Virus genome (UHGV): UHGV-0287696
Strand: one strand, 5' to 3'
DNA: 64,000 nt
DNA from: a virus
Shown: piece by piece, positions 19,664-53,560 of the stretch
Layout: every line of letters starts with the position of its first letter
How positions within the stretch are numbered: position 1 is the first letter of the stretch
The notes under the pieces: model-generated
Seen by the model: the letters and a program-made list of their open reading frames with translations, nothing else
What the model was told of the DNA's origin: nothing
Databases searched by the model: none
Position numbers and translations under genes: made by a program

Positions 19664-19963
19664 ATGCGTTATCAAACGGAGATTGTGGAACGCTTAAGTG
19701 AAGGATTGGCAAGTGTTAATTTAGAAACAGCGGCCGAATTTCGTGAAGCCTTCACTCACCCGTTTCCCGATCTGGAATCCTTTTGTTTAAAGGTCGCTGA
19801 GTATTACTCGAATCTATTAGTACGTTACGGGTATGCGCCAGTACGTTCCGAACTTCCTGAAAACACGGAAGCTATCAGCTACTGGATTGACCTGCTTGAA
19901 GCAGAAACGTTATCCAATTTACGTAAGGCGGTAGACAATGAAACTCGAACCAGCGCGGCGTAA
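19664..19963 (+). CDS. hypothetical protein
   Basis: ORF with AGGAG upstream. Confidence 0.35.
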   Translation: MRYQTEIVERLSEGLASVNLETAAEFREAFTHPFPDLESFCLKVAEYYSNLLVRYGYAPVRSELPENTEAISYWIDLLEAETLSNLRKAVDNETRTSAA

Positions 19964-20606
19964 AAAGGCGGAAGCCTACGCCTTACAAATCTTAAAGTTG
20001 GTAGACCCTTCTGGCATCAATGCTGAAGCCGCGAAGAAAGCCTTCGCACGAATGACCGACGAACAGTTTAACCGACTTCGTAACGGTTTGCCTATTTACA
20101 ACCCGGTGGGAAGTAAAGTCGAAATTGACCACCTGCGCAATATCGAGGTGTGCAAAATTCTCGGGGTAAACCTGGAGCAACGACTCTGGTTAACAGAACC
20201 AAAAACGGGTGTCTATCACCGTACTCGTTACCCTCACTTAGTCTTACGCTTGCCTGTCCGTCGTCAGACACAGATGCAAGAAAAGAAAATGGCGGTTGCG
20301 AAAAACGACAAAGTTCGCGATAAGCTCTCCGGTCAAGTTGTCGGACCTTCCAAAGCATCTGGGGTGTCCTTCCCAGAGGCATACATCATGTATTCCGATG
20401 GCCACGACTGGACACTGAAAGAGTTCCTGTGGGCGCGTGGTGGTAACGACGCACTACAACGTGCTTTCTATCAATCGCTGCGCCAAACCGGTAAAGGGCG
20501 TATTGATTTGCCTGGAGCGGAGCGAACGAGTTCTAAAGCAACGCGTACGTGGTCAGCGTACCTAAAAGCGATGCATATCGGTAACAACATAGGCCATCCG
20601 TCATGA
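19938..20606 (+). CDS. hypothetical protein
   Basis: ORF overlapping the previous gene by 26 nt. Confidence 0.4.
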   Translation: MKLEPARRKKAEAYALQILKLVDPSGINAEAAKKAFARMTDEQFNRLRNGLPIYNPVGSKVEIDHLRNIEVCKILGVNLEQRLWLTEPKTGVYHRTRYPHLVLRLPVRRQTQMQEKKMAVAKNDKVRDKLSGQVVGPSKASGVSFPEAYIMYSDGHDWTLKEFLWARGGNDALQRAFYQSLRQTGKGRIDLPGAERTSSKATRTWSAYLKAMHIGNNIGHPS

Positions 20607-33999: not shown

Positions 34000-36900
34000 T
34001 TACGCTGATTTACGACTAACGTCGAGTTTCGGCGCGGGTTGAGTTATTGACACGTTACGTGACGCCGAACCCGGAGCGGTTGACGCCGGGTTAGCCGGAC
34101 CGTTTTGCATAGCCTGTGGCCGCTGACGAAGAATTGTTACAATCTCTTTCAGATAGCCTGCAGACTCTTTTGCAACCGCCAGCTGTTGTACACTGATCGG
34201 ATCACCACTGTTCACTGTAGAAGCGGTCTGAGCATCGGAAGTTACCGTTGGTGCAGGACGGGCCGATTTCTCCATCTGCTGTCTAGCACCTTCTTTTACT
34301 TTGGCAACCTCTTCTTCGGCCAGGCCATCAGCACGTGCATTTTGACCCACCGTCTCTACAACAACTGACGCATCGCTCGGCGTGACATCGCCACCAGGAC
34401 TCGGCACAGCCGGACCACCACCCGTTGCAGCTTTAATATCTTCAGCACCCATCGCGCCTTTGTCTGCTAAAGCGGAGTCACGATTCGCTTCGTTCGCGGC
34501 TGGCAGGTTATCTGCCGGGCCTGTGATAGACGGATCGTTAGCAGCGCCTGCAGCGATAGCCGGGGAAGACGGCATTGGCGTTACACCTGTCGTCAAGTCT
34601 TTCAGCGATGCCTGGTTAGCCGCGATCGCGTTTGTTCCTACAGCACCAATCTTACCACCCATGATGTTGAGCACTTCATCCAAACTACGCAATTTTCCAT
34701 TCTTGTAGAAAATTGTGCTGTTTGCCGCGATTTGATCGGCCGACGCACCACGCGACGATGGGCCGTTCGGATCACGCTTCCATTCTTGCAGGAATTTCTT
34801 ACCGCCACCTTGTCCTAAGAAGTGGTAGAGGTAAACAGCTGCACCTGGAGGATCGATACCACCTAAATCCTTTCTGGCTTTCTCGATATTATCACGAATA
34901 TGACGGACGCCAAGCAGAGCATTCGCCCACGGGTCATACTGGTTGGTTTGCGGGATACCGTAACGTCTCGCGTAAGCTTTCATCTGCGCACCCCAGGTAT
35001 CGTTGATGAACTGGAACAAGCCAGCCGCAGAACTTCCTTTAGCTTTGATACCGTATCTAAGCCCAGATTCTGCTTGTGCCATTCCCAGTGCTAACGCTGG
35101 AGGAACACCCATCATCTTCGCTACGTCTGTAATCAGTGCTGCAACCGCATTCAAGTTAGGCTTCAATCCGTCACCCAACGTTGAAATTGGATACTTAGCC
35201 GCTAACGTTTTATAGTCACCGTCTTGCATATCGCCAAGTTTCACGCCGAAGTTACCGGTAGTAAATGCAGCGTAATTCTTAGCTCCCATCTGACCGTAAG
35301 CACCGGCCAAATCGTTTGGTGTGCCGTAATTCCCACCGTCGTTCGCTGCCGGTTGCAATAGGTCACGATAAGAGGAGGAGGTGTTCATCTGTGGTCGAGA
35401 CGGTTGCTCCTTCTCGTCATCGGTCAAGAACATCTGGGTCGCACGATCTTTTCGCTGCCAGTTCACACGGAAACCCGCAGAAGGCGTAGCACGCAGCGTT
35501 TTACGTACTGCCAAGTCAGCTTCCTTAGACAGTTCTTTCAGGTTCTCTAACTCTGTTGCAACTGAACCGGCGTCGGTGTTAGCGTCTCCCCCTAACGGGT
35601 TAAACGGTACCTCCCACACTGACTGACGAATACCCCCTTTCAGGTTGTATGCACCACGCATCATCAGTGCGATTTCATACAAGAACCCACCCGTAACGCG
35701 TAGGTCCATCGGATCGGCGGCAGGAACATAACGTTTTACCCCAACGATGTACGTCATGAAGACAGGTAAGAAGCGGTTATAGAACCAGTTCTTGTACCGA
35801 TCTTCTTTTGGCCCACCAATGGCGTCAGGCGCAATCACCGCAATCGCACGTTTCCAGTCGCCTTTATACGTGCAGCTTTTCACATCGGTGTCTTGCAACA
35901 CTTGACGTTCCAAGAGCGTATAGAGGTTACGGGTTGTTTGAGTAATGCTCACCGCACCATAAGCTTTCAACCTTACGGACTCCAAATCACGGAGATCGGT
36001 TTCTTTAGGTAAGCTTCTCCAGTCGACTTGAACCTGAACTTGTTCGGTGCCGTCTTCCCAACCTTCGACTTTCGCAACTTCTTTGTTGCGTTCCGCATCC
36101 GCTTGAGCCAACGCTTGGGTCGATTCCGCCACAGAAGCAACTTTGTGTCCTTCGGCCACACCGCCTGTAGCATTTACATCCTTACGTTTTTCATCACGAC
36201 GCATGTTAATCGAACGAAGCACGCGTTCTTGCGCTTCAACGACTTCTTCGCCTGACAAAAACTCGGCCGGGGTAAACGTTACGAAATCCCACGCTTTAGA
36301 GAACCAACCTTGGTTAACCTTGCGGGGATCTTCTAATGCACGGAATGCAGGCGCATCTTTCGACATCTTCATTTTGTTGAAGATATTCAACATGTCTGCC
36401 TTTGACACTTTCGCAGGATTACCGACATCTGCTAACGCGATATCATTATCCATGGATTTCAGTGCCGTAATCCAACGTAAATAGATCGGCACAAAACGTT
36501 GTAGCATAAACGCACTAAACGCCAGCATTTCGCCTTTGTCTTCTACGTTAGTACCAAACCCTTCGGCCAGTTTCTTCACGTCGTCACCGGACAAACCACG
36601 CAACTGTGCTTGGCCATTCTCTGTATAAGAGATATACGGTTTCAAGTTGTCTTCTAAATAACGTGCTTTTGCGCCATCATCGGAAGACCATTCGTCATGA
36701 TCTCTAAATCCGTACTGTGCCAATCGCATGTTATCCAGATACTGAGCATTTACACGGGTTGCAGTTTTATACGCAAACCAAGACACCGCAGCGCCCGCAG
36801 CGACCAAACCGATAATCGGCCAGCCAACCGCAGTTACCACTGCAGATGCTGCCGTCGCGACAGCACTCACCGCAGGGACAGCCAAACGGGTTACGGCAAA

Positions 36901-39900
36901 TTTACCAACGTTCCACAACGCTTTACCTGCAAACCCAACCGGCTTAAAGATTCCCCATTTTGCAACTTTACCTAAGATTGAACCCACTGTGCCCAAAATA
37001 CTCACAATCGGCCCTACCAACGGCAGTCCTTTAAGGAAATCCATTACCCCACGTTTACCGCCTTTCTTCTCAGCCTCTTTCTTAGCCTTTTCCTCTTCCT
37101 TAGAACGACGACGGCGTCGGAAGAACTGGAAGTAATCGCGTTTTTCATCACTGGCAGGTGGCTTGTTACGTTGACCGAACTTACTGAACATGGTTCTTAA
37201 CAAACCATCCGAAGCACCTGCTTTTTCCGCAGAATCACGCATGGTATTAAACCACGACATTTCCTGAAGATTAACCATTCGGTTCAGGCGTTCCAGTAAA
37301 GCCGACCCAACGCTACGGGCTTTCTGTTTCCCTTTATTAATCACACGTCCAGCGCTATCCGTTACGGTGTCTAAGTCTTCTTTTGCCGCATCGATGATAC
37401 GTGTTTTAGACACCTTGCCTCTTGCGTAGATGTGTTGACGATAAAACTCAGCAACGTCGTCATCGCGTCCTGCTAAACGACTCTCCATTCGATAACGTGT
37501 TCCAATGTCGTAACGCGGATCACGGAAGGTATCGACCATATCGCTTGCACGACCACGGAAACGGTCAAACCAATCACGTGCTGCACCACCCCAACGAGAA
37601 AGACGGCCACCTACCGCACTGCGGTAACGGGACATTCTGTCACGCATCCGACCACGCCAATCCCGGAACCCTTGAAAATGTTCACGGAACCCTTCGCGTA
37701 TGTCCTTAGCACGTTGGAATAATCCTTTAACTGAACTGGCCCCCGTATTCCGCTCCATCTGTTCTGTCCAGGTGTCATCTTCAGGTTCACCTGGCAATCT
37801 CCGGTTAAGGAGTTTGTAGATACGGATTAAGATGTGGTTAGTTTTACGGCCATTCGACCACGAGAACACACTAAACCCACCACCAGAACCCCCTTCCTTA
37901 CGGTTCTGCCACCAACGTGTCAACGGATTATCAGAAGCCAACTCTTTGAGCTTCTCAAACCCACGTTTTGCATTGTTCCACAGACGAGCTGGCATTCCCG
38001 TTACGCGGGAAATCATGCTTTGTAAACGGGTTTTCTCTGCACCCTCTGGAACCTCATTTAACCACTCGCGTGCTTTCTCGAACAACGAAGCCGCTTTAGG
38101 CGAAATGAAACCCAGAAGTTTCTTCGGTAAGGTCACAGCTTTGTTTACCGCCGTTCCTGCCTTCCCAGAAATGTACTGGAAAAGCGCTTGAACTTTACCG
38201 CCTTTGTAGAAGCGTAGTTTACCTGCGGCAGCCAAATCAGCAGCCGCTAAGATTAAATTACCCGCTTCGTCGACGATGTCACGTCCCAGTTTAATATCGT
38301 CGAGAGTTTTAAGTTGAATCAGCTTCTCAGTTTTCGGGTCAGCCTGGTAATAATCCCCAGCTTCTAAACGACTTCCTTGTAATACGACGTTACCACGTTC
38401 ATCGTAGATGTCGCGAACGCCTAAAACGCCTTTACCGAAAGCTACGGCAGAATTCCAACCAGTCGATAATGTACCAGTTACTAACCCTTTCAGTCGGCTA
38501 AATACGCCAGGACCTTCGGAGGAACCGCCTGAGAATTTCCCACGAATAAAACCACCTAATGCTTGTAGGCGATCTTTCCCACGTAGGAACAGATTCTTAC
38601 CAAACCGTCCTACACCAGAACCGGTATCCCAAAGCACCCCAGCCCAGCGACGTAGCAAACCTGTCTCGCCTAGTACAATACGTTTGCGCTTACGACGACG
38701 TTTACGGCCCGATTCACTCGAACTTTCAGGTTCGTCGCCGTCATCACGACTACCGCCTAAACTGGCTAGAAGAATACCTTCCTCATCCATGTTCTTAACG
38801 TGTTTGAGGATGTCTTGCACGATGCTAGATTCAGGCTGTTTACGTACCGCATCAATCAAACGATCGAACTGTTGTTCCAGCCCGGCGTTCGTATCTGGAC
38901 GGCTGCTTAAGAGCTCAACAAAGTTGGTAGATTTCTCTCCATAAAGTACCGCAGCGAGTTGACGGGCGCTTAAACCACGACCGCGACCACCCTTTCCACC
39001 ACCACGTACGTTGGACAGTTCTTTGTCTTCAAAGCTCGGCTCTGCACCTGCCCCCATCCGACGCAAGTAATCACCCAACGCAGAACCGTTTTGCAGCTTA
39101 CGTTGAATCTCTTGCTCACGGGTTAACGAACGGCCAGAGCGGGTCTTACCCATCGACAGGTCGTTAAATAGCGTATAGGGATCGTTAATGTCCTTATCGA
39201 CTTCGAAAATGTCGTTCTTCGCATCGTATTTAAAAATACCGGAATCGCGAAGTGCGTTCTCGCCGTAAATCACAGACGCAGCGTCAACCGTGTCTTGACG
39301 TGCACGAATCGTTGACTGGATAGCGGCGATTTTGTTTGAAATAGCATTACTCAGTTCATGGTGTCCACCAACCAGTTCCGCAGAACGGGCTTCTAAAACA
39401 CCCTGAATCGCTTCCACAGCGTTTGCGTTCATGTAACGATACATGTGCATCGGGTCTTTCAATAAAGACCCTACATCGAACGCTTTCCCTTCTGAGGCAC
39501 GAGACTCGATGTAGTCCGCTAACGCTTGACGTGTTTTCCTATCGAGCGTTTTATCTTTATCGATAAAGTCGACAGTGTCGTTGATGTACGTCTGTAAACG
39601 TTTACGCTGATCGTCATTAGCAACGGCCTTACGTACACGATTACCAATGACTTTGCGATCCACCATACCACGCGTGGTCAGGTCATAAACCTGATCGTGG
39701 TGTTCGCCATACCCACGACGAATAGATTTGTTAATCTCGGACAGTAACGTCGGAATAACTTCGGTGATACTAAGGTAAGCTTTACGATCGAATTTCGCCG
39801 CGGCAGAAAGAGATTCCGCAGAGCGATCATCTAATGCTAAGGTTTCGCGACGTAGCGGGTTAACTAGCCCCAAATCGTGCATTAGTCGAAACAGATCAGC

Positions 39901-41124
39901 TAACGGACCGCTTGTTTCTCCCGCTATTGCCGAGTTAGAAATAGACGACAAATTTCCAAAGCCATACTTCGCCAACTGTAGGCGTTTCATGACTTCTGGG
40001 TTTTTCTCTAACTCGCCACGTGTCCAGTTCTGAAGACGTTCGATCTGGGGTTGTAAGAGACGTTTTGCTAACCAACCACCTGCAAAACCTGCCGCTTTAT
40101 TACGCGAGTTTGTGTTACGACGGTCAGGAGACAACGATGAGCTGTCCGACATGTCAAAGTCATCTTCCTGAGCCATCCCTAGAACTTGTTCTAGAATCCC
40201 ACGGCCATCACTAAAGATGTTCGAGATTTTCTTCTTCGCGTTTTCGCGAATCTGACCAATGAAATTGTCTGCGTAGTGTAAGGGGTTCATCCACTCCGCA
40301 GCTTTACGTTTTACATTAGCCCAACGAATTTCAGAAAACTCTTCCTTCGCGTAGTCCGGTAGTGCTGTGTTCTTAACGATGGCTTCTAATGCCGGGGTGT
40401 TGCGTGCAAACTCGTCTTGTTTGAGTTTCGCAATATCCTGCAAAGCAAACAATGTCCGATATTGCAGCTCTAACTGCTTACGCTGAACATTTAACAACAC
40501 ACCACGACTTAAGCTAGTCGTTAAGTTGACGTCTTTCGCAATACCGATTACGGTCTGGAACAGTGCGTCGGACTTCATGTCCTTAATCGTGTCGCGCAAG
40601 CGGTCTTCAACCATCCCCTCTTGCGCCTCACGTTGCTGGTCCGCTGTTTGCGGTGCACCTGAGAACACGCTGTCCAGCTCACGATCCATCATCGCTTGTT
40701 TAGGATCGTAATTCCCATAGTCGATTTGATCGTTACGTGCCCACTTGTCGATTTTCCGTGTTACGGATTCCGGTAAATACCGTTTCAGTGTTGGGCCTAA
40801 CTGTCTCGCTTGCATCTTGACGACGCGAGACGTCTTTTCAATCTCGTCTTTCGTATGGGCCAGAATGTCTTGACCTGCAGCTTTAACGTTTTGATAGCCT
40901 TCGTAGGCTTCTGCCGCAGGTTTAGGCATCCCTTTTAAAATAACCTGATCACGTTTGTTTTCGGGCCAGATAGTCGACAACGCCGACTTACGGGCAGCAC
41001 GAAATGTGTCCATGACCGGGTTACGCGATTGGTCTTGTTGACGAGGGGGCTCATCAAAATCGTCCCAGTCGTCCATGTTATCAAGATCGATTTCATCGAA
41101 ATCATCTTTACCTTTTTTAGCCAT
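34000..41124 (-). CDS. giant virion-associated protein (2374 aa) with internal lytic transglycosylase domain
   Basis: Single uninterrupted ORF. Acidic N-terminus, hydrophobic segments mid-protein, SLT motifs (AQAESGLRYG, AAGLFQF, Y...) about 1950-2100 aa from the N-terminus, Ala/Gly/Pro-rich C-terminal tail. Confidence 0.7.
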   Translation of the reverse strand: MAKKGKDDFDEIDLDNMDDWDDFDEPPRQQDQSRNPVMDTFRAARKSALSTIWPENKRDQVILKGMPKPAAEAYEGYQNVKAAGQDILAHTKDEIEKTSRVVKMQARQLGPTLKRYLPESVTRKIDKWARNDQIDYGNYDPKQAMMDRELDSVFSGAPQTADQQREAQEGMVEDRLRDTIKDMKSDALFQTVIGIAKDVNLTTSLSRGVLLNVQRKQLELQYRTLFALQDIAKLKQDEFARNTPALEAIVKNTALPDYAKEEFSEIRWANVKRKAAEWMNPLHYADNFIGQIRENAKKKISNIFSDGRGILEQVLGMAQEDDFDMSDSSSLSPDRRNTNSRNKAAGFAGGWLAKRLLQPQIERLQNWTRGELEKNPEVMKRLQLAKYGFGNLSSISNSAIAGETSGPLADLFRLMHDLGLVNPLRRETLALDDRSAESLSAAAKFDRKAYLSITEVIPTLLSEINKSIRRGYGEHHDQVYDLTTRGMVDRKVIGNRVRKAVANDDQRKRLQTYINDTVDFIDKDKTLDRKTRQALADYIESRASEGKAFDVGSLLKDPMHMYRYMNANAVEAIQGVLEARSAELVGGHHELSNAISNKIAAIQSTIRARQDTVDAASVIYGENALRDSGIFKYDAKNDIFEVDKDINDPYTLFNDLSMGKTRSGRSLTREQEIQRKLQNGSALGDYLRRMGAGAEPSFEDKELSNVRGGGKGGRGRGLSARQLAAVLYGEKSTNFVELLSSRPDTNAGLEQQFDRLIDAVRKQPESSIVQDILKHVKNMDEEGILLASLGGSRDDGDEPESSSESGRKRRRKRKRIVLGETGLLRRWAGVLWDTGSGVGRFGKNLFLRGKDRLQALGGFIRGKFSGGSSEGPGVFSRLKGLVTGTLSTGWNSAVAFGKGVLGVRDIYDERGNVVLQGSRLEAGDYYQADPKTEKLIQLKTLDDIKLGRDIVDEAGNLILAAADLAAAGKLRFYKGGKVQALFQYISGKAGTAVNKAVTLPKKLLGFISPKAASLFEKAREWLNEVPEGAEKTRLQSMISRVTGMPARLWNNAKRGFEKLKELASDNPLTRWWQNRKEGGSGGGFSVFSWSNGRKTNHILIRIYKLLNRRLPGEPEDDTWTEQMERNTGASSVKGLFQRAKDIREGFREHFQGFRDWRGRMRDRMSRYRSAVGGRLSRWGGAARDWFDRFRGRASDMVDTFRDPRYDIGTRYRMESRLAGRDDDVAEFYRQHIYARGKVSKTRIIDAAKEDLDTVTDSAGRVINKGKQKARSVGSALLERLNRMVNLQEMSWFNTMRDSAEKAGASDGLLRTMFSKFGQRNKPPASDEKRDYFQFFRRRRRSKEEEKAKKEAEKKGGKRGVMDFLKGLPLVGPIVSILGTVGSILGKVAKWGIFKPVGFAGKALWNVGKFAVTRLAVPAVSAVATAASAVVTAVGWPIIGLVAAGAAVSWFAYKTATRVNAQYLDNMRLAQYGFRDHDEWSSDDGAKARYLEDNLKPYISYTENGQAQLRGLSGDDVKKLAEGFGTNVEDKGEMLAFSAFMLQRFVPIYLRWITALKSMDNDIALADVGNPAKVSKADMLNIFNKMKMSKDAPAFRALEDPRKVNQGWFSKAWDFVTFTPAEFLSGEEVVEAQERVLRSINMRRDEKRKDVNATGGVAEGHKVASVAESTQALAQADAERNKEVAKVEGWEDGTEQVQVQVDWRSLPKETDLRDLESVRLKAYGAVSITQTTRNLYTLLERQVLQDTDVKSCTYKGDWKRAIAVIAPDAIGGPKEDRYKNWFYNRFLPVFMTYIVGVKRYVPAADPMDLRVTGGFLYEIALMMRGAYNLKGGIRQSVWEVPFNPLGGDANTDAGSVATELENLKELSKEADLAVRKTLRATPSAGFRVNWQRKDRATQMFLTDDEKEQPSRPQMNTSSSYRDLLQPAANDGGNYGTPNDLAGAYGQMGAKNYAAFTTGNFGVKLGDMQDGDYKTLAAKYPISTLGDGLKPNLNAVAALITDVAKMMGVPPALALGMAQAESGLRYGIKAKGSSAAGLFQFINDTWGAQMKAYARRYGIPQTNQYDPWANALLGVRHIRDNIEKARKDLGGIDPPGAAVYLYHFLGQGGGKKFLQEWKRDPNGPSSRGASADQIAANSTIFYKNGKLRSLDEVLNIMGGKIGAVGTNAIAANQASLKDLTTGVTPMPSSPAIAAGAANDPSITGPADNLPAANEANRDSALADKGAMGAEDIKAATGGGPAVPSPGGDVTPSDASVVVETVGQNARADGLAEEEVAKVKEGARQQMEKSARPAPTVTSDAQTASTVNSGDPISVQQLAVAKESAGYLKEIVTILRQRPQAMQNGPANPASTAPGSASRNVSITQPAPKLDVSRKSA

Positions 41125-41153
41125 AACGTTTAATCCGTATCAGGAGATTTAGC

Positions 41154-42773
41154 GTGAATAAACTTAATTGGGTTGACTTTTATCTGCTCAATGTAAACAA
41201 GTCTCTTGTGTCGCGATTACGACCCGTCACGACCACGGATACTTTCCAGGGGTTAACAAAAAACTTTCACCCCGAAGGTCTTTACTCTACAGAGATATTT
41301 GGACTCACGGGGAGTGAAGCGCGAGACTCTACTTTCTCTTATATCGATATTAAACTCGATATCATTTCGCCGACGGTGTGTTTGGCGTTATTCCAACTCA
41401 AACAACTCTACGAAGAAATTTGTTCTGGAAAACGCTACGCAACGTGGAGCGAAAAAGAAAAAGATTTCGAACCGGCCTTGCCGGGAGACCCAGGCGCAGA
41501 TACCGGTTTTAACTTCTTCCTCAGTCACTATAACGATTTAAAACCTAAGCGTAACGAGTCCCTACAACGTGACGAAACCGTGGATTTCTTTTTGAAATTC
41601 CGTCCCGTTAGTCTTAGTCGATACGTTCTCGTGTTACCCGCGGGTTTACGCGATTTAGTAATTCGACAAGATGGTAGAGAACAGGAAGAAGAAATCGGCG
41701 GGATGTATCGTCGGTTGGTATCACTCGCCAGGGCGATCCCTGACCGAGCAACCCGTGTTGAATTAACTAACCCCGTGCGCTGGAAACTGCAACAAACCTT
41801 CAACGATATCTGGATGTATTTCTTTAACATCCAAGACGGTAAAGGGGGTTTCCAACGTCGTAAAGTGACGTCTCGTAAATTAATGAACGGGACACGTAAC
41901 GTACTGTCCTCGTTCTCGACGGGGTCTAAGTGCATGGGTCGTGAAGACGCTATTCGTCCCACCGACACCAAAATTGGTTTATACCAGGGTTTAAAAGCAT
42001 TACTCCCCGTTGCGCAGTACCAGATACGTGAACGTTACCTCGGTAACATCCGTGCTGGTGACGGCAACCTTTACGGCGTAAACACCAAAACCCTTAAACG
42101 TGAATTCTTGGAAGTAGGTGGTCGTGTATACGACACCTTTACCACCGACGATGGGATTGAATCCTTAATCAACCGAATGGAAGCTCGCGAGCTTCGCCAT
42201 CAACCGATTATGTTGGACGACACCCACTACGTTGCGTTGGTTTACCAAGACACCAAACATTTTAAGGTGTTCTACGATATTGAAGAACTTCCTAAAACGT
42301 TTGACCGAAAATTCGTTCACGGTATGACGCTCGTCGAATTGCTTTATTTGTCGGGCTACGAACTTTGGAACGATTATTTCGGTTTCGTTACACGTTATCC
42401 CGTTACAGGCCGAGGCTCGACGTATTCATCGACCATAAGATTGGAGACCACCACATCATCTTTATACTTAAAAGAACTGGAAGATGACTGGGAAACTGAA
42501 AAACCCCGAGGGGCTATCAGCTACCCTGACCGGTCGGTTCCTACCTTCGTTGAGTCGATGGCACCACACCCTTCACGCTTAGGTGGCTTAGGGGGTGACT
42601 ACGACGGCGATACCGGGTCGTTTAACGCGCCTATGTCCCAGGAAGCACTCGAGGAAAACCGGAATTGGATACACTCGAAAAACTACTGGTTCGATTCTGA
42701 TGGGAACTTTAAAATCAATCCTATCAACAACGTGATTAAACGTGCAACGCAAGCGTTATTAAAGAACCCATAA
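41154..42773 (+). CDS. large hypothetical protein with DYDGD motif (possible RNA-polymerase-like catalytic loop)
   Basis: GTG start with AGGAG upstream, divergent from the giant gene; GGLGGDYDGDTGSFNAP lies near the C-terminus. Confidence 0.5.
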   Translation: MNKLNWVDFYLLNVNKSLVSRLRPVTTTDTFQGLTKNFHPEGLYSTEIFGLTGSEARDSTFSYIDIKLDIISPTVCLALFQLKQLYEEICSGKRYATWSEKEKDFEPALPGDPGADTGFNFFLSHYNDLKPKRNESLQRDETVDFFLKFRPVSLSRYVLVLPAGLRDLVIRQDGREQEEEIGGMYRRLVSLARAIPDRATRVELTNPVRWKLQQTFNDIWMYFFNIQDGKGGFQRRKVTSRKLMNGTRNVLSSFSTGSKCMGREDAIRPTDTKIGLYQGLKALLPVAQYQIRERYLGNIRAGDGNLYGVNTKTLKREFLEVGGRVYDTFTTDDGIESLINRMEARELRHQPIMLDDTHYVALVYQDTKHFKVFYDIEELPKTFDRKFVHGMTLVELLYLSGYELWNDYFGFVTRYPVTGRGSTYSSTIRLETTTSSLYLKELEDDWETEKPRGAISYPDRSVPTFVESMAPHPSRLGGLGGDYDGDTGSFNAPMSQEALEENRNWIHSKNYWFDSDGNFKINPINNVIKRATQALLKNP

Positions 42774-42782
42774 GGCTAAGCA

Positions 42783-45700
42783 ATGCTGCTCATTAAACAG
42801 TTTAACCAACGCTTCTCGGTGCGTAAAACTGACGAGTTTGGTAATCCGAGGATTATCCCGCTCGAGAAGCTACAGATACCACGTGGTTCTGTACTCCATG
42901 TCATTGATCTCGACCAGGTGGTATTAGCGCCACCTGCAACACTCGAGATTATTCAACCGTTAGAAAAACCTGCACAGGTTCGTCACCACTTTAAATTACC
43001 GGAAGACGGTATTAGCGGTCATCCGCGCAACAAACCTGTTCAGGGGCAAGAACGTGCTATCTTTGCTTACCACCGTGCAAACCGCCCGATGCGTCGTCTT
43101 ACCTCAGACGATCTGGTTCGCAAAGACTTAAAAGTTCTCCTGGTCGAGAACTACACACCAATGCTATCGCACTACTACTATCCTGACACCCAGTTAGCCT
43201 GGTACGATAGACTGCGTAACATCCAACTGTTGATGATTAACCAGTTCAAATACGACACGCAAGAATACATGCGTCAGAACTATTTCGTTATTGAACTGGG
43301 TTCGACTCTACCTTCGTTCCAGAAGTTTCAAACAACCTATAACGACCGCGTTAAGAGCAAGATTGAGAAGTTCCAGGACTTCAACTTGCTGTGGTTATTG
43401 GAGTTGTTTGCTTGGGCTTATGGAAAACAATCCGATTCCCTATTCTCGGGAATGGATTTAACTCAGCTGTCACGAATGAACTTTATCTTCACCCACAACA
43501 CGGGCTTTACGTCCATGAACATGGGTGTTGTAGAGAAAATGCGTAAGTCGTCCGGCGGTCGTTTAAGTGATGACCAAATGGCCAGGATGTTCTACCGTAC
43601 GCTGGTGCGTGTAATGACACAAGCACCGTCTAACGCGTACGAAGCTGAATTCCTAACGCCTGAAGGCGACGAGCGTGTTTTCCTTAAAGACGTCGAAGAA
43701 GAAACCGTTGATGTTGTCGACGATGACGATGTTGTTAATGACGCTGTGGTGGAATCCGATAACACCTTCGATGAAAAAGAAGACGTTGTTATTGAAGAAC
43801 CGAAGGAAGACGTCAAACCGACGACCATCGTCGTCGAGAAAGTCATTCCGCATGACGAGATTATTAAACAGGAAGCACAACGCTTAGCTGAAGCGGGCCG
43901 CTTAAGTTCTAAAGCATATCAGTTCCTGTCAGAATCGTCTAAACGTTTCGTTCAGCTACCTAACCCGTATAACCCGAAAGAAACCTACGGGGAAGCACTG
44001 ACTGTTCACGAGAAAGATATCGTCGTTAAAGCCGAGCCGAAAAAAGTTCAGCGGCTTGTTACCGATGAAGGGTGGGCAGAGAACGTCACCGACCAGATGG
44101 TGAAACAATACAACCAGACCATGATGACCAAAGACGTACTGGCGGCGGTCGCCAGTTCACAACGTTTGGGTCTGGCGGTTCACAACCACACGGTGGAAAA
44201 AGAAGTTTCTGTTACAGGAACTATCGAGCACCACACCTTACGTGTTCAGCCAGTCGGTGGTGAGCCAACAACCGTTCGCTTCTCTATCCCAGGCTTGACC
44301 GAGGACGGTACTTGGGTCGCTAATGGTGTCGAATACACCATGCGTCGCCAACGTGTGGACTTACCGATTCGTAAGGTTGCACCGGATACTGTCGCACTGA
44401 CTACCGCTTACGGTAAAAACTTTGTCCGTCGTAGTGATAAAGTCGCAAACGATTACGGCCGTTGGTTAACCAACGCGATTATCACACGCGCCGTTGACCC
44501 GACAAACACCGAAGTCACCGATGCACGTTTAGCAAATGTGTTCGATCCTACGCAACATCTGCCTCGTCAGTATACGGAGATTGCACGCCGTATTGCCAGC
44601 TTTAATGCGAACGGCTATATGTGGAACTTCGACTACAAAGAAGCCGTTAACTTCTTTAACGACGAGCAACTCAGAGACGCCGATGCTGCCAAACTTCTGC
44701 CAGTGGCGAAACGTCCGCGTAGCGAAACAATCCTGGCAATGGATGACAAATCCATGCTTTACGGTGTGAACGGAAACAAAGTTGAACCAGTGGGAACCAT
44801 CGCAGAGGTATTGGGCTTTAATAACCAGAAAGTGCCTCGCGAAATGACCGAGCTGTCTTTGATGGGTAAATCTTTGTCGCTTGGTTTTATCTTCTCGTTC
44901 TATCTTGGACTCCAGGGAATGTTGAAACATTTCGGTATCCAGTACGAGTTGGTTCCTACAGGACAGCGTGTTGATAAGAATGCCTACGACAGTATTATTC
45001 GACTACAAGACTGTAAACTTTTAGTTACTTGCGATAACGATCAGCAGAGGATGATTCTGCATGGTTTGGATCGCTATCTCAAACACCTGGTTGCTTATAC
45101 CGAATCAGAAGCAGACCGCGAAGACATTTACCTGAACTTATTACGTGAAGCAGATGGCCTAACGCCACGGTACATCAACGAGCTGAAACAGATGCGGTCC
45201 GCGTTTGTTGACGACATGCACGCACGTATCCTCAGGAAAATGGGTGAGCCGGAAACCTTTATTGGCTTGCTGGAACGTTCTAACGAACTGTTACAAACTG
45301 ACCACTCTTTACCAGAGATTAACGGCGATGAAATGATGTTCTTAGGAAATCAGAGGATTGCCTACCACATCTATACTGCGATGGTCAGAGCGATGCGTAA
45401 CTACAATAACGCACCGGGCAGTAACCGTAAGTTCGAACTGACACAAGACATGGTTTGGGGTGCAATTAACTCCGACCCGTCGGTACTTTTGGCACCAGGC
45501 GCTAACCCTATCCAGTCAATTAAAGAAAAAGACGTTATTACGATGGGGGGTACAGGTGGTCGTAATCGTAAAACGATGGTCTACCACACGCGTGAGTTCC
45601 AACCCAGTGATATCGGGATAGTCTCGGGTAATACCGTAGATAACGGCGACGTAGGGATTACTGCTTTCGTCACCAATAACCCACGTTTTGACACCGTTGA

Positions 45701-46949
45701 CGGTACCACGTTTAAGCGTGAAGAGAAAACCCCGAAACCAAGCGATACCCTTTCGTTTATTGACGGGTTAGTACCCGATACGTTAATGGACGATGCAAAA
45801 CGTCAAAACTTCGTTGGGATTCAGTTAGGTTCTGCCACCAGTTGTAATGGGGCAACCACAACCCCGTATCGTACTGAACAGGAGAAATTCGTCGCACACC
45901 GTACTTCGGTGAAACATGCACGCGTTATTGATAAAGCAGGTAAGATTACTGGTCTGTCGAAAGACCACATTGAAATTACGTACGAAGATGGAAGTAAAGA
46001 AGCCTTTCCTCTAGGGCGCTGGTTCGGCCCCCACGAAGGTACCTTCTATCCGCACACCTTGGTAACACGCTGGAAAGCCGGTGATAAGCTCCCGGCCGGA
46101 GCAGTGATTACGTACAACGAGCAACACTTTGAACCTGATATTTACGATCCTACTCAGGTTTCCTGGAAAAACGGGGTGCTGGCCACCGTTGCTTTATTAG
46201 AAGCTGAAGAAGTTATCGAAGACTCCAACGCAATTTCTGAACGGTTCGCGAAGAAAATGGTGGGGCAGGTAACAAAGCTGAAAGAAGTGACGATTAACAG
46301 CAACCAGATGCTTTTGGAAATCGTGAATGAGGGCGACCACGTAGACGTCGATACAATCCTATGCACGTTTACTGACGACTTGACGGGCGATATGAGTGCC
46401 TTTAGTCAGGAAGCAGCCGCAACGTTGCAAAGTTTAAGTTCGTACGCACCTCGTGCAGGGGTACGTGGTATCGTGGATAAAATCGAAGTGGTGTATCACG
46501 GTGAAACCGAAGACATGACGCCAAGTCTTGCTGAGCTGGTGCGTAAATACGACAGAATTCGTCGTAAAGCCGCACTGGCAGTCGGACGCGGTGATCCGGT
46601 TTCAGGCAGTGTAAACGGCGACTACCGTGTCGAAGGTGTACCCTTGGCCTTTAACTCACTTTGTGTTCGATTCTTTATTACACACGACGTTGAGATGGCC
46701 GCTGCGGATAAGATGGTTATTGCTAACCAGCTAAAAACCACCGTACAAGAAGTCATGTACGGCGACAACAAAACAGAGGATGGTGATGACCTGGACGTGT
46801 TGTTCGGTCGCGATTCCGTCGATGCGCGTATCGTAGGTTCAATCCAACGTATCGGTACCGCGAATGCTGTAGGTGAACAAGCCGGGATTCTCATCGGGCG
46901 TATACTCGATGGGGAGGCTGTGCCTGATTTACCCGCGACACTTAAATAA
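42783..46949 (+). CDS. large hypothetical protein (1388 aa)
   Basis: Long ORF in the same frame as the upstream ORF, separated from it by TAA-GGC-TAA; internal acidic run; function unknown. Confidence 0.5.
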   Translation: MLLIKQFNQRFSVRKTDEFGNPRIIPLEKLQIPRGSVLHVIDLDQVVLAPPATLEIIQPLEKPAQVRHHFKLPEDGISGHPRNKPVQGQERAIFAYHRANRPMRRLTSDDLVRKDLKVLLVENYTPMLSHYYYPDTQLAWYDRLRNIQLLMINQFKYDTQEYMRQNYFVIELGSTLPSFQKFQTTYNDRVKSKIEKFQDFNLLWLLELFAWAYGKQSDSLFSGMDLTQLSRMNFIFTHNTGFTSMNMGVVEKMRKSSGGRLSDDQMARMFYRTLVRVMTQAPSNAYEAEFLTPEGDERVFLKDVEEETVDVVDDDDVVNDAVVESDNTFDEKEDVVIEEPKEDVKPTTIVVEKVIPHDEIIKQEAQRLAEAGRLSSKAYQFLSESSKRFVQLPNPYNPKETYGEALTVHEKDIVVKAEPKKVQRLVTDEGWAENVTDQMVKQYNQTMMTKDVLAAVASSQRLGLAVHNHTVEKEVSVTGTIEHHTLRVQPVGGEPTTVRFSIPGLTEDGTWVANGVEYTMRRQRVDLPIRKVAPDTVALTTAYGKNFVRRSDKVANDYGRWLTNAIITRAVDPTNTEVTDARLANVFDPTQHLPRQYTEIARRIASFNANGYMWNFDYKEAVNFFNDEQLRDADAAKLLPVAKRPRSETILAMDDKSMLYGVNGNKVEPVGTIAEVLGFNNQKVPREMTELSLMGKSLSLGFIFSFYLGLQGMLKHFGIQYELVPTGQRVDKNAYDSIIRLQDCKLLVTCDNDQQRMILHGLDRYLKHLVAYTESEADREDIYLNLLREADGLTPRYINELKQMRSAFVDDMHARILRKMGEPETFIGLLERSNELLQTDHSLPEINGDEMMFLGNQRIAYHIYTAMVRAMRNYNNAPGSNRKFELTQDMVWGAINSDPSVLLAPGANPIQSIKEKDVITMGGTGGRNRKTMVYHTREFQPSDIGIVSGNTVDNGDVGITAFVTNNPRFDTVDGTTFKREEKTPKPSDTLSFIDGLVPDTLMDDAKRQNFVGIQLGSATSCNGATTTPYRTEQEKFVAHRTSVKHARVIDKAGKITGLSKDHIEITYEDGSKEAFPLGRWFGPHEGTFYPHTLVTRWKAGDKLPAGAVITYNEQHFEPDIYDPTQVSWKNGVLATVALLEAEEVIEDSNAISERFAKKMVGQVTKLKEVTINSNQMLLEIVNEGDHVDVDTILCTFTDDLTGDMSAFSQEAAATLQSLSSYAPRAGVRGIVDKIEVVYHGETEDMTPSLAELVRKYDRIRRKAALAVGRGDPVSGSVNGDYRVEGVPLAFNSLCVRFFITHDVEMAAADKMVIANQLKTTVQEVMYGDNKTEDGDDLDVLFGRDSVDARIVGSIQRIGTANAVGEQAGILIGRILDGEAVPDLPATLK

Positions 46950-46956
46950 TCTCGAG

Positions 46957-46975
46957 GGGTGGGTCGCTCCCACCC
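46957..46975 (+). other. weak stem-loop after the 1388-aa gene
   Basis: GGGTGGG-TCGCT-CCCACCC with only a weak T tract. Confidence 0.3.
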
Positions 46976-46996
46976 TTGTAAACTCCGGAGAAGAGA

Positions 46997-47290
46997 ATGT
47001 CTATTCTAGATAAAATCAAACAGCGGCACGGTATTCCGACTGGGAAAAATATTACCCAGCAAAACGTGGAGGGATACAGTCCCATTCAACGTACCAACTA
47101 CGTGTCTTTAGGTAATACTGTCGAATTAGCAACGGAGATTGTGCATGGTCTGATTCGCGGTAACTCAGGAATGTCTGACCGTATCGGTGATCAGAAACTG
47201 CTGAAACGTGATATCGCAGATCTGGTGGGCGCGCGTTTGTACGCGATGCTTCAGGCGAACATCAGCACGAATAAAGAGGTTAAACAATGA
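46997..47290 (+). CDS. hypothetical protein
   Basis: ORF with GGAG upstream. Confidence 0.35.
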   Translation: MSILDKIKQRHGIPTGKNITQQNVEGYSPIQRTNYVSLGNTVELATEIVHGLIRGNSGMSDRIGDQKLLKRDIADLVGARLYAMLQANISTNKEVKQ

Positions 47291-48747
47291 TCAGTTTATA
47301 CTCGCTGAATGCGGTTACTAACGCCATGAAACTGTGCAAACAGCATAATGTTCAGCTTGGCACAGACGTTGACTCTCCAGTTGATTTGCTCAACCGTGCG
47401 GTCGACCCTACCCGCGTTTTCGATACCACAATCACCGACGAACAGTTCTTCCAGGAACTACCCGCGATTACGCAGCTTAAACGTCCGGTAGACGGTACGG
47501 CAGAAGCTTCGATTATTCGTGACGGCGCTGTTGAAGTTGAAGCACTGCGTGTTGACGATCATGAAACCACGTTATTCGAACTGAAGAACATGGCCATTCA
47601 GCGTTGCAACGGGATGCTGGATTTTGCCCGTAACGTTGTTCAACCGTTTGTGCAGCTGGTTATCCAAAATAACACGATTGAAGATGTCAAACCGTTGGTC
47701 GAAGACTGGAACCTGATTCCGGTAGGTATCGATCCGTGTGTGGATTCCCCAGTTGTCCAGGCGCTGATTCAAGAAATCGCCAACCCGATGGGCAACGGTA
47801 CGACTTACGACCCGATCAAGTTCGATGTACCGACCGACATCGAGATTCCGGAAACAGGTGTAAAAGCGTATGATGAACTGGTACGTAAATTACTGAACGA
47901 CCTGAATCTCAGCATGTACGATGCAGCAAAACTTCTGCTGGCAGGTAACTACACCGTACCTGTTGCAGATAAAGCACCGGAGATGGTAAAAGAACGTGTT
48001 CTGGTACTGCTGTTGTCTTCGTTCTTCATTGAACGTCCGTGGCCTGACTCAGGTGTTGACGCCCTGAAATGGAAAGCGGAAATGGGTCGTGCCTATTACA
48101 CGTCTATCGGTTGGGTATACGGTTTCGAAAAAGCGGTGGCTAACCGTGTCGCCACAGGTAACATCGTTTACTCTTACGATACCAACGAGAAAAACGTCTA
48201 TATCTGTCAGGAAACGATGGATGACTACCTGGAAAAAGGTGGTATCGTTGAAGCCCTGTTGGGTGCCATTTACCTGATGGACGAAGGCGACTATAACGTT
48301 TCCGCACGCGTGGCGTCTCTGCTGGAAAACCAGAAAGCCTACGTTGAAGCTTACAATCGTCGTGCAATTATCGTTCAGAAACGAAATGAACTCGACTGGG
48401 TAAGTCGTAACCGTCAGGCACTGAAAACAGCGTTCTCGATTGCAATCGACCAGCTCGACCAGGGCTACCTGACTGTTGGCGAGCTGACGCGCACTCGCGA
48501 AGAAGTCAAACAGGTTGTTATGGGGATTTGTGATGATTTCTTCGTCAACGCAGACGAAGACATTACGTTGTTTATCATCCGGACTGCATGTAACTCCGTA
48601 TTCTGCGCCTACGAAATCGATCCGCTGATGCGTGCGATTCATACCGCGATGATTGAGAACACCGATCCGGCAGAAGCCGCAACCAGTTGGATGATTGACT
48701 ATGTACTGAACTGGATTGCAGGTTCAGTATTTGTCGACAAACTTTAA
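47287..48747 (+). CDS. hypothetical protein
   Basis: ATGA overlap with the upstream gene; AGAGG upstream. Confidence 0.45.
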   Translation: MISLYSLNAVTNAMKLCKQHNVQLGTDVDSPVDLLNRAVDPTRVFDTTITDEQFFQELPAITQLKRPVDGTAEASIIRDGAVEVEALRVDDHETTLFELKNMAIQRCNGMLDFARNVVQPFVQLVIQNNTIEDVKPLVEDWNLIPVGIDPCVDSPVVQALIQEIANPMGNGTTYDPIKFDVPTDIEIPETGVKAYDELVRKLLNDLNLSMYDAAKLLLAGNYTVPVADKAPEMVKERVLVLLLSSFFIERPWPDSGVDALKWKAEMGRAYYTSIGWVYGFEKAVANRVATGNIVYSYDTNEKNVYICQETMDDYLEKGGIVEALLGAIYLMDEGDYNVSARVASLLENQKAYVEAYNRRAIIVQKRNELDWVSRNRQALKTAFSIAIDQLDQGYLTVGELTRTREEVKQVVMGICDDFFVNADEDITLFIIRTACNSVFCAYEIDPLMRAIHTAMIENTDPAEAATSWMIDYVLNWIAGSVFVDKL

Positions 48748-48759
48748 CGCGCTTAGGAG

Positions 48760-49494
48760 GTGATCGTGAGTGCGATTGAAACAGCCCGTCGTGACCCTAC
48801 TAAGGTTCATGCGGACTTGGTAAATAACGGCACGGTCACTACTACCAAAGGGGGATGTTACATTTACATCCCCGTTGGGTTTGTGGCGAAAGAGTTGGCG
48901 GTTATTTCTTCTACGGTAACAATTGTAGGGATCTTTGCGATTTCTACCGACCGTAAAACATATGGGGTGTCCAGCGTTACAACGCTTATGGAAATTACCC
49001 CAACGGCGTTTGAAGAGATCGACGTCTTTGGTGTTCCTTATTACGAATTTCGTTTTGATCCCGGTACAGTGGTTTTCCCCAACCGCAATTTACAGGTGTT
49101 GTCTCACCCTATTTACAACATTGCGTCGTATATTTACGACTTTGGTAATCGTCCTTTCTGGTTTACTGCAGCGGATGATGCTGAACTCTTGGCACCTGAT
49201 AAAGTCAAGAAATGGAACGGTTTTACTGTATTTGCCGATCAGATTACCGCTGACGTTTACGCAGCACACACACAGCGTAAAGTAGGTGATCCGAGAACGT
49301 TCTTCCGTTACACGCTGAAGAAAGATAGCGATCTTAACAACCCTGTGCAGTTTATTCCATTGCGCAGTGGTTCACTTAACAAAACGTCGAGACTGGCGAA
49401 ACTTGCAGACGTAGAACTTAAACGTGGTATTCGTTCTGCGCTACAGGTTGACCCAGTGCGTGCCGAACCGCTCGAAGATTTGTTTATGAGGTAA
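48760..49494 (+). CDS. hypothetical protein
   Basis: GTG start with AGGAGG upstream. Confidence 0.4.
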   Translation: MIVSAIETARRDPTKVHADLVNNGTVTTTKGGCYIYIPVGFVAKELAVISSTVTIVGIFAISTDRKTYGVSSVTTLMEITPTAFEEIDVFGVPYYEFRFDPGTVVFPNRNLQVLSHPIYNIASYIYDFGNRPFWFTAADDAELLAPDKVKKWNGFTVFADQITADVYAAHTQRKVGDPRTFFRYTLKKDSDLNNPVQFIPLRSGSLNKTSRLAKLADVELKRGIRSALQVDPVRAEPLEDLFMR

Positions 49495-49525: not shown

Positions 49526-50329
49526 ATGGACAATTTAACACTGCGTTACAACTGCGTAGCGTTAGCCGGTGTTAACGCTCCAGCCACACTGGAGAAAGAC
49601 GCGGATGGCTATTACCGCGTACTATTGGGTGCTTTGAATATCTTTAACTCGGAAGGGATTTTTTACGCCTATAACGAGTCTAAGCACGTATTCGAACGCT
49701 CGAATATCTTTATGCGTAAAGTGAAAGCAGGGAATCTGTTCGGGGAAGAAGATCACCCGGCACCAGAACCCGGTATGACCGAAGCGCAATGGATTGATCG
49801 CAACGAATGGATTGAGACGAAAAACGTCTGTATGCACATTCGTGAAGTTGAAGTGATTCCAACCGACCAAACCTGTAACGGGTTGCCGGTTATGGAAATC
49901 TGGGGCTGGATTAAACCGAACCGTGAACGTGGTCCGTACTTGGCAGAAGCGCTCGAAAACCCACACCAGAATGTATGTTTCTCTCTGCGTGCAATCGTAC
50001 GTGAAGGTTATGTAGGTGGTGTGAAAACACGTCGCCTGGATCGCCTGGTAACGTTTGACTGGGTTATCGAAGACGGGTTGCAGATTTGTAACAAATACTC
50101 TGCGATTCAACGCGGTAGTAAAGTGGCTCAAGAATCCACACGCGTTCTGCTGGACCGTCGCGTCTCCCTCCAGGCGCTGGAGGACATTCTGCGAAATCCT
50201 AACACTACGTCTACCATCGCGACAGAATCTCGTCGTGGTGAAGTTCGTGCGTTAGCGCAGGAGTACCTGGCCATCGCTAATAAGAAAACTAACCTGCGTG
50301 TTATGGGTTTAGGTAACGGGAAGTGGTAA
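49526..50329 (+). CDS. hypothetical protein
   Basis: ORF in a coupled series. Confidence 0.4.
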   Translation: MDNLTLRYNCVALAGVNAPATLEKDADGYYRVLLGALNIFNSEGIFYAYNESKHVFERSNIFMRKVKAGNLFGEEDHPAPEPGMTEAQWIDRNEWIETKNVCMHIREVEVIPTDQTCNGLPVMEIWGWIKPNRERGPYLAEALENPHQNVCFSLRAIVREGYVGGVKTRRLDRLVTFDWVIEDGLQICNKYSAIQRGSKVAQESTRVLLDRRVSLQALEDILRNPNTTSTIATESRRGEVRALAQEYLAIANKKTNLRVMGLGNGKW

Positions 50330-52888: not shown

Positions 52889-53560
52889 ATGGAAGCTACT
52901 GAAATTAATAAATTCTGGGAACGTGTACTTAGCCACTTCCGCGATTTCTATCGCTATACCGATAGCGCACATCGACTAGACCACATTCTTTCTGTGAAGT
53001 CGAACGCTGTTCGTATCGCTTACCTGTTGAACGAAACTCAACACTTAAAGAATGTTCTGGTTGCTGTGGCAGCGCACGATATTTTCTCCACACCTGCTGA
53101 CCGTGCCTCCCACCACATCAAAGCATTCAATTACGTGCTTGATTCTGCACCTATTCTCAGACGTCGCTTTAAACTTACCTCCGACGATGTAACCGAGGTA
53201 GCGTATGCAGTATTAGAACATCGGAGTTCCCACAAAGGTGGTTATAATTCCATTGTTTCTGAAATTGTCGCTGCCGCCGATCGCGGTATCCCTACCGTCG
53301 AAGAAGTTAAAAATTACATGCACCGCTCTTACTTATACGCACGTGACCATGGAAAATCCGTGACTGATTCAAAATTCCATGCAATCAGTCACGTACAAAA
53401 TAAGTTCGGTCGTAATGGTAAATCTCGTGTTCCTGATTGGTATAACGCATTGTTTGCGAAAGAAATCTTGGAACGCCAAGAGTACGTTGAAATGCTCGAC
53501 TTAGCGTATTTCACCGACGAAATCATCACTGGCTTAGAAAGCCGTCTTCAACAACAGTAA
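52889..53560 (+). CDS. HD-domain phosphohydrolase candidate
   Basis: His/Asp pattern AHRLDH ... VAAHDIF ... SHHIK ... LEHRSSH ... AADRG consistent with an HD metal-binding set. Confidence 0.4.
   Translation: MEATEINKFWERVLSHFRDFYRYTDSAHRLDHILSVKSNAVRIAYLLNETQHLKNVLVAVAAHDIFSTPADRASHHIKAFNYVLDSAPILRRRFKLTSDDVTEVAYAVLEHRSSHKGGYNSIVSEIVAAADRGIPTVEEVKNYMHRSYLYARDHGKSVTDSKFHAISHVQNKFGRNGKSRVPDWYNALFAKEILERQEYVEMLDLAYFTDEIITGLESRLQQQ

Follow-up and report, generated by a model that had tools for sequence, protein, structure and literature searches.

Two adjacent genes of a phiKZ-related jumbo phage very probably encode the beta'N and betaN subunits of a virion-packaged RNA polymerase

The virus genome UHGV-0287696 was analysed over a stretch of 64,000 nucleotides (the window), in which two large open reading frames (ORFs) of 539 and 1388 amino acids follow each other beside a giant ORF of 2374 amino acids. 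The shorter one contains the motif DYDGD, and a reading made from the letters alone (hereafter the sequence-only reading) had proposed that this motif is the catalytic loop of a divergent, split RNA polymerase (RNAP) subunit. Do these ORFs indeed encode a polymerase, of which kind, and are they two genes or a single broken one? Both ORFs were found as that reading had described them, the first being divergent from the giant ORF, which lies on the minus strand. Sequence-family, profile, structure-prediction and orthology evidence together support the conclusion that, almost certainly, they code for beta'N and betaN of a virion-packaged multisubunit RNA polymerase (vRNAP) of the SPN3US/phiKZ type:

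41154..42773, + strand: gene for a beta'-N-terminal-like vRNAP subunit of 539 amino acids, orthologue of SPN3US gp240 and phiKZ gp180
42783..46949, + strand: gene for a beta-N-terminal-like vRNAP subunit of 1388 amino acids, ATG start, orthologue of SPN3US gp241

We describe below the homology, the fold, the conservation of catalytic residues, the gene order and the conserved split on which this conclusion stands. Such a pair is an ordinary, already described feature of these phages and does not change what is known of their enzymes; the value of the result is mainly the correct annotation of two genes.

The 539-residue protein belongs to the beta'N family

The first gene starts with a GTG codon, with AGGAG 7 nucleotides (nt) upstream. 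Its product falls into phrog_2986, annotated 'RNA polymerase beta subunit' (E 7e-234), and shares 86% identity over its full length with gp240 of Salmonella phage SPN3US, the stretch GGDYDGD being identical in the two proteins. Using tblastn, a homologue was found in 323 phage records, PHIKZ180 among them (32% identity, E 1e-61), and nearly all of the best 150 of the 871 representative clusters retrieved at E <= 0.001 are about 540 residues long. A profile of 29 homologues was searched against the PDB with hmmsearch. The best match was the beta'N subunit of the non-virion RNA polymerase (nvRNAP) of Bacillus phage AR9 (7S00_d/7S01_d, E 4e-13), followed at lower ranks by plastid RpoC1, cyanobacterial gamma and bacterial beta'. 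The profile aligns VLPAGLRDL...YRRL and GKGGFxRRKVxSRxxxNGTRNV to their beta' counterparts in the AR9, plastid and bacterial chains, and hhalign places the same blocks on residues 218-356 of E. coli beta' with a probability of 85%. These blocks and the loop lie as follows:

41619..41909, + strand: conserved beta' blocks before the catalytic loop, residues ~156-252 (VLVLPAGLRDL...YRRL and DGKGGFQRRKVTSRKLMNGTRNVLS), aligned by hmmsearch to beta' of many bacteria and plastids
42597..42611, + strand: DYDGD codons, residues 482-486, predicted Mg2+-binding catalytic loop of the first double-psi beta-barrel (DPBB-A)

An AlphaFold2 model of the protein reached a predicted local distance difference test score (pLDDT) of 80. 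Submitted to Foldseek, it matched 7s01_d at E 6e-14 and then hundreds of beta' and gamma chains, at about 14% sequence identity to cellular beta'. The sequence-only reading had asked for a structure prediction, and the matches obtained are to beta' subunits and to no unrelated structural family. The protein is thus predicted to have a beta'-type fold that includes the first double-psi beta-barrel, the barrel topology around DYDGD being taken from matches of the whole model.

DYDGD aligns with NADFDGD of plastid beta' and with SGDYDGD of AR9 beta'N. Translating the whole window in six frames gives a single D-x-D-G-D motif, for an expectation from composition of ~0.19 over the six frames and of 0.0008 in the 539-residue protein. 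A stronger argument against chance than this count is the conservation of the motif in homologues: D482, D484, G485 and D486 are invariant in the 29-homologue alignment, down to 38% identity. In a broader set, DxDGD was present in 243 of 268 homologues, x being F in 146, Y in 58 and H in 35 of them. About 20 of the 25 homologues without the motif are called ORFs that are cut off at or just after the codon of its first aspartate, most of them ending in '...LGAD'. Tyrosine in the x position, also seen in AR9 beta'N, is by this count a common variant of the family. The assignment of the motif as the loop of a double-psi beta-barrel polymerase, first suggested by five residues, is therefore upheld by the family, profile, structure-prediction and orthology evidence.

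The sequence-only reading had placed GGLGGDYDGDTGSFNAP at the very end of the ORF. The sequence is there, and the position is not terminal, as 53 residues follow DYDGD. This tail is close to the family median of 54, indicating that the polypeptide stops just past the first barrel. A split of beta' after DPBB-A is common to vRNAPs, nvRNAPs and cyanobacteria (PMC7598289). About ten homologues (P0165, P0172, P0240, P0299 and others) are 670-850 amino acids long and have 190-360 residues after DxDGD instead of ~54; they could be fusions to the next beta' piece or to another domain.

The 1388-residue protein corresponds to the N-terminal part of beta

The product of the second gene belongs to phrog_3148, annotated RNA polymerase (E 0), and is 77% identical to SPN3US gp241 over its full length. 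An 18-homologue profile matched the beta subunit of Thermus in the PDB (E 8.5e-7) in four collinear stretches. In this alignment EDGTWVANG of betaN faces EDGSFIING of Thermus beta, and ANPIQ...GGTGGRN faces TNPLS...GPGGLTRE. The counterparts of the beta blocks are:

45546..45566, + strand: GGTGGRN, residues 922-928, counterpart of the beta GPGGLTRE block (profile and hhalign alignments)
45789..45812, + strand: DDAKRQNF, residues 1003-1010, counterpart of the beta DDANRALMG block (significant HMMER stretch and hhalign)
46215..46238, + strand: IEDSNAIS, residues 1145-1152, counterpart of the beta NFEDSILVS block (hhalign to E. coli beta)
46704..46739, + strand: ADKMVIANQLKT, residues 1308-1319, carrying the two conserved lysines of the second barrel (DPBB-B)
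42783..44219, + strand: N-terminal extension of betaN, residues 1 to about 479, without detectable counterpart in cellular beta, with an acidic linker at residues ~300-345

Residues G922, G923, G925, G926 and R927 of the first block, as well as E1146, D1147 and S1148 of the third one, are invariant in the 18 homologues, and DDAKRQNF falls in a stretch that HMMER scores as significant (26.5 bits) against residues 530-639 of Thermus beta. A second barrel with conserved lysines had been named by the sequence-only reading as something to look for, and the partner ORF provides it: K1310 and K1318 are invariant in the 18 homologues, and their counterparts in Thermus beta are the lysines of GDK and NKG. 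The lysine stretch, in which ADKMVIANQLKT is aligned with Thermus beta GDKLANRHGNKG, is not significant alone, and we assign it because it is collinear with the other stretches and its lysines are invariant. A model of residues 480-1388 made with AlphaFold2 (pLDDT 68) gave as top Foldseek matches only bacterial RNAP beta chains, with E values of about 1e-14 and a probability of 1.00.

Upstream of this polymerase part, no match in the PDB and Pfam searches covers residues 1 to ~480, the matches to beta beginning at about residue 506. In SPN3US gp241, an N-terminal domain of ~400 residues without homology to beta was described, with a proposed role in head targeting (Thomas et al., J Virol 2016, PMC5105663).

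The junction separates two genes

The two ORFs are in the same reading frame, separated by TAA-GGC-TAA as the sequence-only reading had noticed, and their starts are 1629 nt apart (3 x 543). Such sharing of a frame is expected by chance in one case out of three. The junction is the following:

42771..42785, + strand: TAA GGC TAA GCA ATG, comprising the beta'N stop, an AAGG Shine-Dalgarno-like element and the betaN start

A stop codon (TAA, TGA or TAG) followed by AAGG and ATG is kept at this place in all eight loci compared, the spacer varying between 3 and 19 nt. SPN3US has a short spacer of the same kind; the window has 9 nt with two in-frame TAA codons, where SPLA1a and SPAsTU, relatives belonging to Seoulvirus, have 18 nt, and the nearest relative reads AAA GGC TAA where the window reads TAA GGC TAA. 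The two genes are in frame (relation 0) in seven close relatives, but Erwinia phage Caitlin has +1 and a metagenomic locus (L008) differs too. Thus, the shared frame is not conserved. The database clusters of the two proteins, with 207 and 717 members, keep the same lengths as the ORFs of the window, and a scan found no terminator-like site on the + strand between the two ORFs. The two genes are probably co-transcribed and separately translated.

Weighing the vRNAP assignment

Several results weigh against the assignment to a vRNAP. Pfam, even at E <= 1, gave no RNAP family in either ORF. Single-sequence phmmer searches against the PDB gave for the 539-residue ORF a sole beta' match that is insignificant (E 0.4) and for the 1388-residue ORF chance matches to laccases only, which is why family profiles were needed for both. 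In the models, the pLDDT falls below 50 at residues 480-485 of the 539-residue protein, making the catalytic loop a low-confidence part, and modelling is also poor for the active-site core of betaN (model residues 421-562). The alignment of the betaN profile to the single E. coli rpoB sequence by hhalign, collinear as it is, has a probability of 1% and was for this reason used only for locating blocks. A middle beta' subunit of the gp42 type (beta'M) was not recognised among the window ORFs scanned. Finally, no jumbo-phage vRNAP had been purified by 2020 according to a review (PMC7598289), so the subunit stoichiometry and the promoter recognition of these enzymes are matters of inference.

Another polymerase of these phages, the nvRNAP used for late or middle transcription, has to be considered, since among solved structures beta'N is matched best by a non-virion subunit, AR9 7S00_d. 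Such a match is what one expects when only nvRNAP structures are among the PDB matches, and searches of the PDB and of the literature turned up no vRNAP structure. The AR9 subunit is paralogous, comes from a uracil-DNA phage of Gram-positive hosts, is shorter (426-448 amino acids) and is only about 14-15% identical to the protein studied here. We consider an nvRNAP very improbable. It is also most unlikely that the proteins derive from an RNAP but have lost catalysis and serve in the virion as structural or ejection proteins. Their high divergence (~14% identity to cellular beta', no Pfam match) and the large non-polymerase domain at the N-terminus of betaN could be understood in this way, but the aspartates and glycine of DxDGD, the barrel lysines, EDS, DDxxR and GxGG are invariant in homologues down to 29-38% identity, and early transcription in phages of the phiKZ type is independent of the host RNAP and attributed to the vRNAP (PMC5105663, PMC10612078).

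The in-frame arrangement, with 9 nt between the ORFs beyond the first stop and the same frame in seven close relatives, would suit a single gene broken by a sequencing error, or joined by stop readthrough, whose product would be a polymerase with two barrels in a single chain, as YonO and QDE-1 are. YonO of SPbeta and QDE-1 carry a DxDGD-type loop on a double-psi beta-barrel, and the sequence-only reading had mentioned them in passing and had asked for a check for sequencing errors at the junction. Neither idea held. An interrupted gene, whether by frameshift, fusion or sequencing error, was rejected, as the stop, AAGG and ATG are kept in every locus compared and Caitlin and L008 are out of frame; moreover, the ORFs cannot be the halves of one broken gene because each is homologous to a different cellular subunit. 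Membership of the YonO/QDE-1 type was likewise rejected, since in the phage each barrel has its own polypeptide, homologous over its whole length to beta' or to beta, and conserved stops and a ribosome-binding site separate the two. No single-chain enzyme appeared among the top structural matches of the beta'N and betaN models. A broken or read-through gene is thus scarcely credible as an explanation of the locus, and by its sequence the enzyme is predicted to work like a cellular two-barrel multisubunit RNAP and not like the single-chain type. It is also very doubtful that, in the lineage with in-frame genes, rare readthrough gives a little linked beta'N-betaN that could nucleate the assembly or packaging of the five-piece enzyme, as the stops are tandem, the ribosome-binding site is conserved and there are relatives in which the genes are out of frame.

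Comparison with known enzymes and proposed function

The vRNAP of SPN3US is the closest described system. Besides the similarity of gp240 and gp241, the gene order is the same, including gp242-, gp243- and gp244-like ORFs and a gp245-like protease. The evidence as a whole bears out the earlier suggestion of a divergent split RNAP subunit encoded by a large phage beside virion genes. In SPN3US, mass spectrometry places gp240 (beta'N), gp241 (betaN), gp218 (betaC), gp42 (beta'M) and gp244 (candidate beta'C) in the head, and a gp241 amber mutation is lethal and leads to particles that lose all five of them (PMC5105663). The phage of the window is a different one, with only ~73-76% DNA identity to isolates of the SPN3US, phiEaH2 and Stratton types. 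In Pseudomonas phage phiKZ, gp180 (beta'N) and gp178, according to the literature the counterpart of the 1388-residue protein, belong to the same family and share the catalytic loop, although the beta'N identity is only 32% and phiKZ subunits have F in the x position (DFDGD) where the window has Y. Each phiKZ virion contains roughly 7-30 copies of gp180, which is injected along with the DNA; gp178, gp80 and gp149 co-precipitate with it, and the phiKZ vRNAP transcribes early genes independently of the host RNAP (PMC10612078). The role of a packaged, injected early polymerase is known from the orthologues in SPN3US and phiKZ, and is here predicted from the genes.

With cellular enzymes, beta'N shares the fold, the DxDGD loop and the LPxxLRP...YRR and GKxGxxR blocks found in cyanobacterial gamma (RpoC1), plastid RpoC1 and bacterial beta', and betaN shares the GPGG, DDxxR, EDS and GDK...NKG blocks of bacterial beta. 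Cyanobacteria also have their beta' split after the first barrel (PMC7598289). In contrast to cellular RNAPs, the phage proteins show no Pfam-level similarity and have no known alpha, omega or sigma partners; their beta is split as well, their beta' is in three pieces, and betaN has the extension of ~480 residues. The vRNAP core consists of at least five polypeptides and has no alpha or omega (PMC7598289).

From these comparisons a working scheme can be proposed. The first double-psi beta-barrel would be provided by beta'N, the three aspartates of DYDGD holding the catalytic Mg2+, and the chain ends ~50 residues past this barrel, at the split point of cyanobacterial gamma and of other jumbo-phage beta' pieces. 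In betaN, the extension of ~480 residues without cellular counterpart precedes a polymerase part that would comprise lobes and fork region, both the DDxxR and the EDS block, and the second barrel, which carries the two lysines. Translation of betaN would use the AAGG element that overlaps the tandem stops. By analogy with the SPN3US and phiKZ orthologues, beta'N and betaN may assemble with a betaC subunit (19938-20606), a beta'M encoded elsewhere and the gp244-like protein (48760-49494), and the complex would be packed in the head, injected with the DNA, and would then transcribe early phage genes without the host RNA polymerase, alpha, omega or sigma. A phage with such a vRNAP does not need the host RNA polymerase. 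Together with the genes at 19938-20606 and 48760-49494, the beta'N and betaN genes identify the window as a piece of a jumbo phage, related to phiKZ, which brings a polymerase of its own into the cell.

Other candidate subunits in the window

Two further ORFs of the window correspond to subunits named in SPN3US:

19938..20606, + strand: predicted beta-C-terminal-like subunit (SPN3US gp218-type), 222 amino acids, phrog_3233 'RNA polymerase beta subunit' (E 6e-93)
48760..49494, + strand: SPN3US gp244 orthologue (86% identity), 244 amino acids, candidate beta'-C-terminal vRNAP subunit, phrog_2926 'virion structural protein'

The predicted betaC has the length of SPN3US gp218, which was assigned betaC by Thomas et al. 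(PMC5105663), and single-sequence searches with it gave no PDB or Pfam match. Its counterpart in phiEaH2 (20466-21128 of JX316028.1, our locus L011) is 84% identical. The phiEaH2 record annotates only the 3' part of this gene (20817-21134), as a 105-residue 'hypothetical protein', which suggests that the start site was wrongly annotated in the public record. The gp244-like ORF, like betaC, showed no RNAP family in Pfam, even at E <= 1; the designation of gp244 as beta'C by Thomas et al. in 2016 came from weak HMM (hidden Markov model) evidence and from its loss from gp241-minus particles (PMC5105663). The beta'M gene is probably outside the window, as the gp42 gene of SPN3US is far from the corresponding region.

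Phage group and gene neighbourhood

The source phage is a jumbo phage of the SPN3US/phiEaH2 group, related to phiKZ. Compared with jumbo phages of the SPN3US, phiEaH2 and Stratton group (Seoulvirus, Erskinevirus), the window has a DNA identity of 73-76%, and over a long stretch nothing closer is present among the isolates of the phage collection. The closest proteins to the 539- and 1388-residue ORFs (96% and 94% identity) are encoded on ~220 kb contigs in Salmonella enterica assemblies, for instance L007 (GCA_044615825.1, contig DBBCHT010000001.1, 220,621 bp). These proteins are labelled only 'hypothetical protein' in databases, so the vRNAP annotation can be transferred to them. The contigs come from assemblies of several serovars, and none of the 207 and 717 member sequences of the two protein clusters is annotated. 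From the serovars and the cluster sizes, a jumbo phage of this kind seems often to accompany sequenced Salmonella cultures, which a carrier state or contamination could explain.

Around the two genes, the order is a giant tail protein with an SLT domain, the 539- and 1388-residue ORFs, ORFs of 97, 486 and 244 amino acids and the head-maturation protease, past which the tail sheath and structural proteins are found. This order is the same in phiEaH2, SPN3US and L007, indicating that the neighbourhood among virion genes is conserved. Annotated genes of the window include:

34000-41124, - strand: ORF of 2374 amino acids, divergent from the 539-residue ORF, phrog_3201 'tail fiber', SPN3US gp239-type, with an SLT lytic-transglycosylase domain at residues ~1999-2085
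49526-50329: head-maturation protease, phrog_3014 (Peptidase_S80 in L007)
52889-53560: ORF of 223 amino acids, in the place where SPN3US and phiEaH2 have an annotated 'HD domain protein'; a Pfam scan gave no HD hit for it
55757-57814: tail sheath, phrog_3242
18123-19619: UvsX-like recombinase, phrog_97

The giant ORF and the 539-residue ORF are separated by a divergent spacer of 29 nt (41125-41153), which leaves no room for two conventional promoters, so that start sites must be inside coding regions or further away. The spacer is likewise 29 nt in phiEaH2, Stratton, Asesino, SPN3US and L007, and 14 nt in Caitlin. A scan for sigma-70 promoters between 40.5 and 47.5 kb found three sites, fewer than the 7.6 +/- 2.7 found in shuffled sequences; the tool does not cover the promoters of such phages and none was assigned. 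The scarcity of sigma-70-type matches at 40500-47500 accords, weakly, with a transcription that does not use the host RNA polymerase. Over the whole window, Rfam at gathering thresholds and a tRNA scan found nothing.

Group I introns in relatives

In the metagenomic locus L008, both polymerase genes are interrupted. At L008:7441-7839 (window 42597-42611), a group I intron separates 'LGAD' from an ORF with 'FDGDTGS' and so sits inside the codons of the catalytic loop. It matches the full-length Rfam model RF00028 with 32.2 bits (E 3.8e-6), below the gathering score of 50, and the gap of ~390 nt is too short to hold a homing-endonuclease ORF. At L008:11125-11545 (window ~45789-45800), another group I intron (RF00028, 50.5 bits, E 1e-11) splits betaN at DD|xKR. 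This is the site of the mobile intron in PhiPA3 gp210, whose nuclease cuts phiKZ gp178 there (Birkholz et al., bioRxiv 10.1101/2023.09.30.560319). The genes of the window are uninterrupted at both sites, and its betaN is an intron-less allele with the conserved target motif DDAKR.

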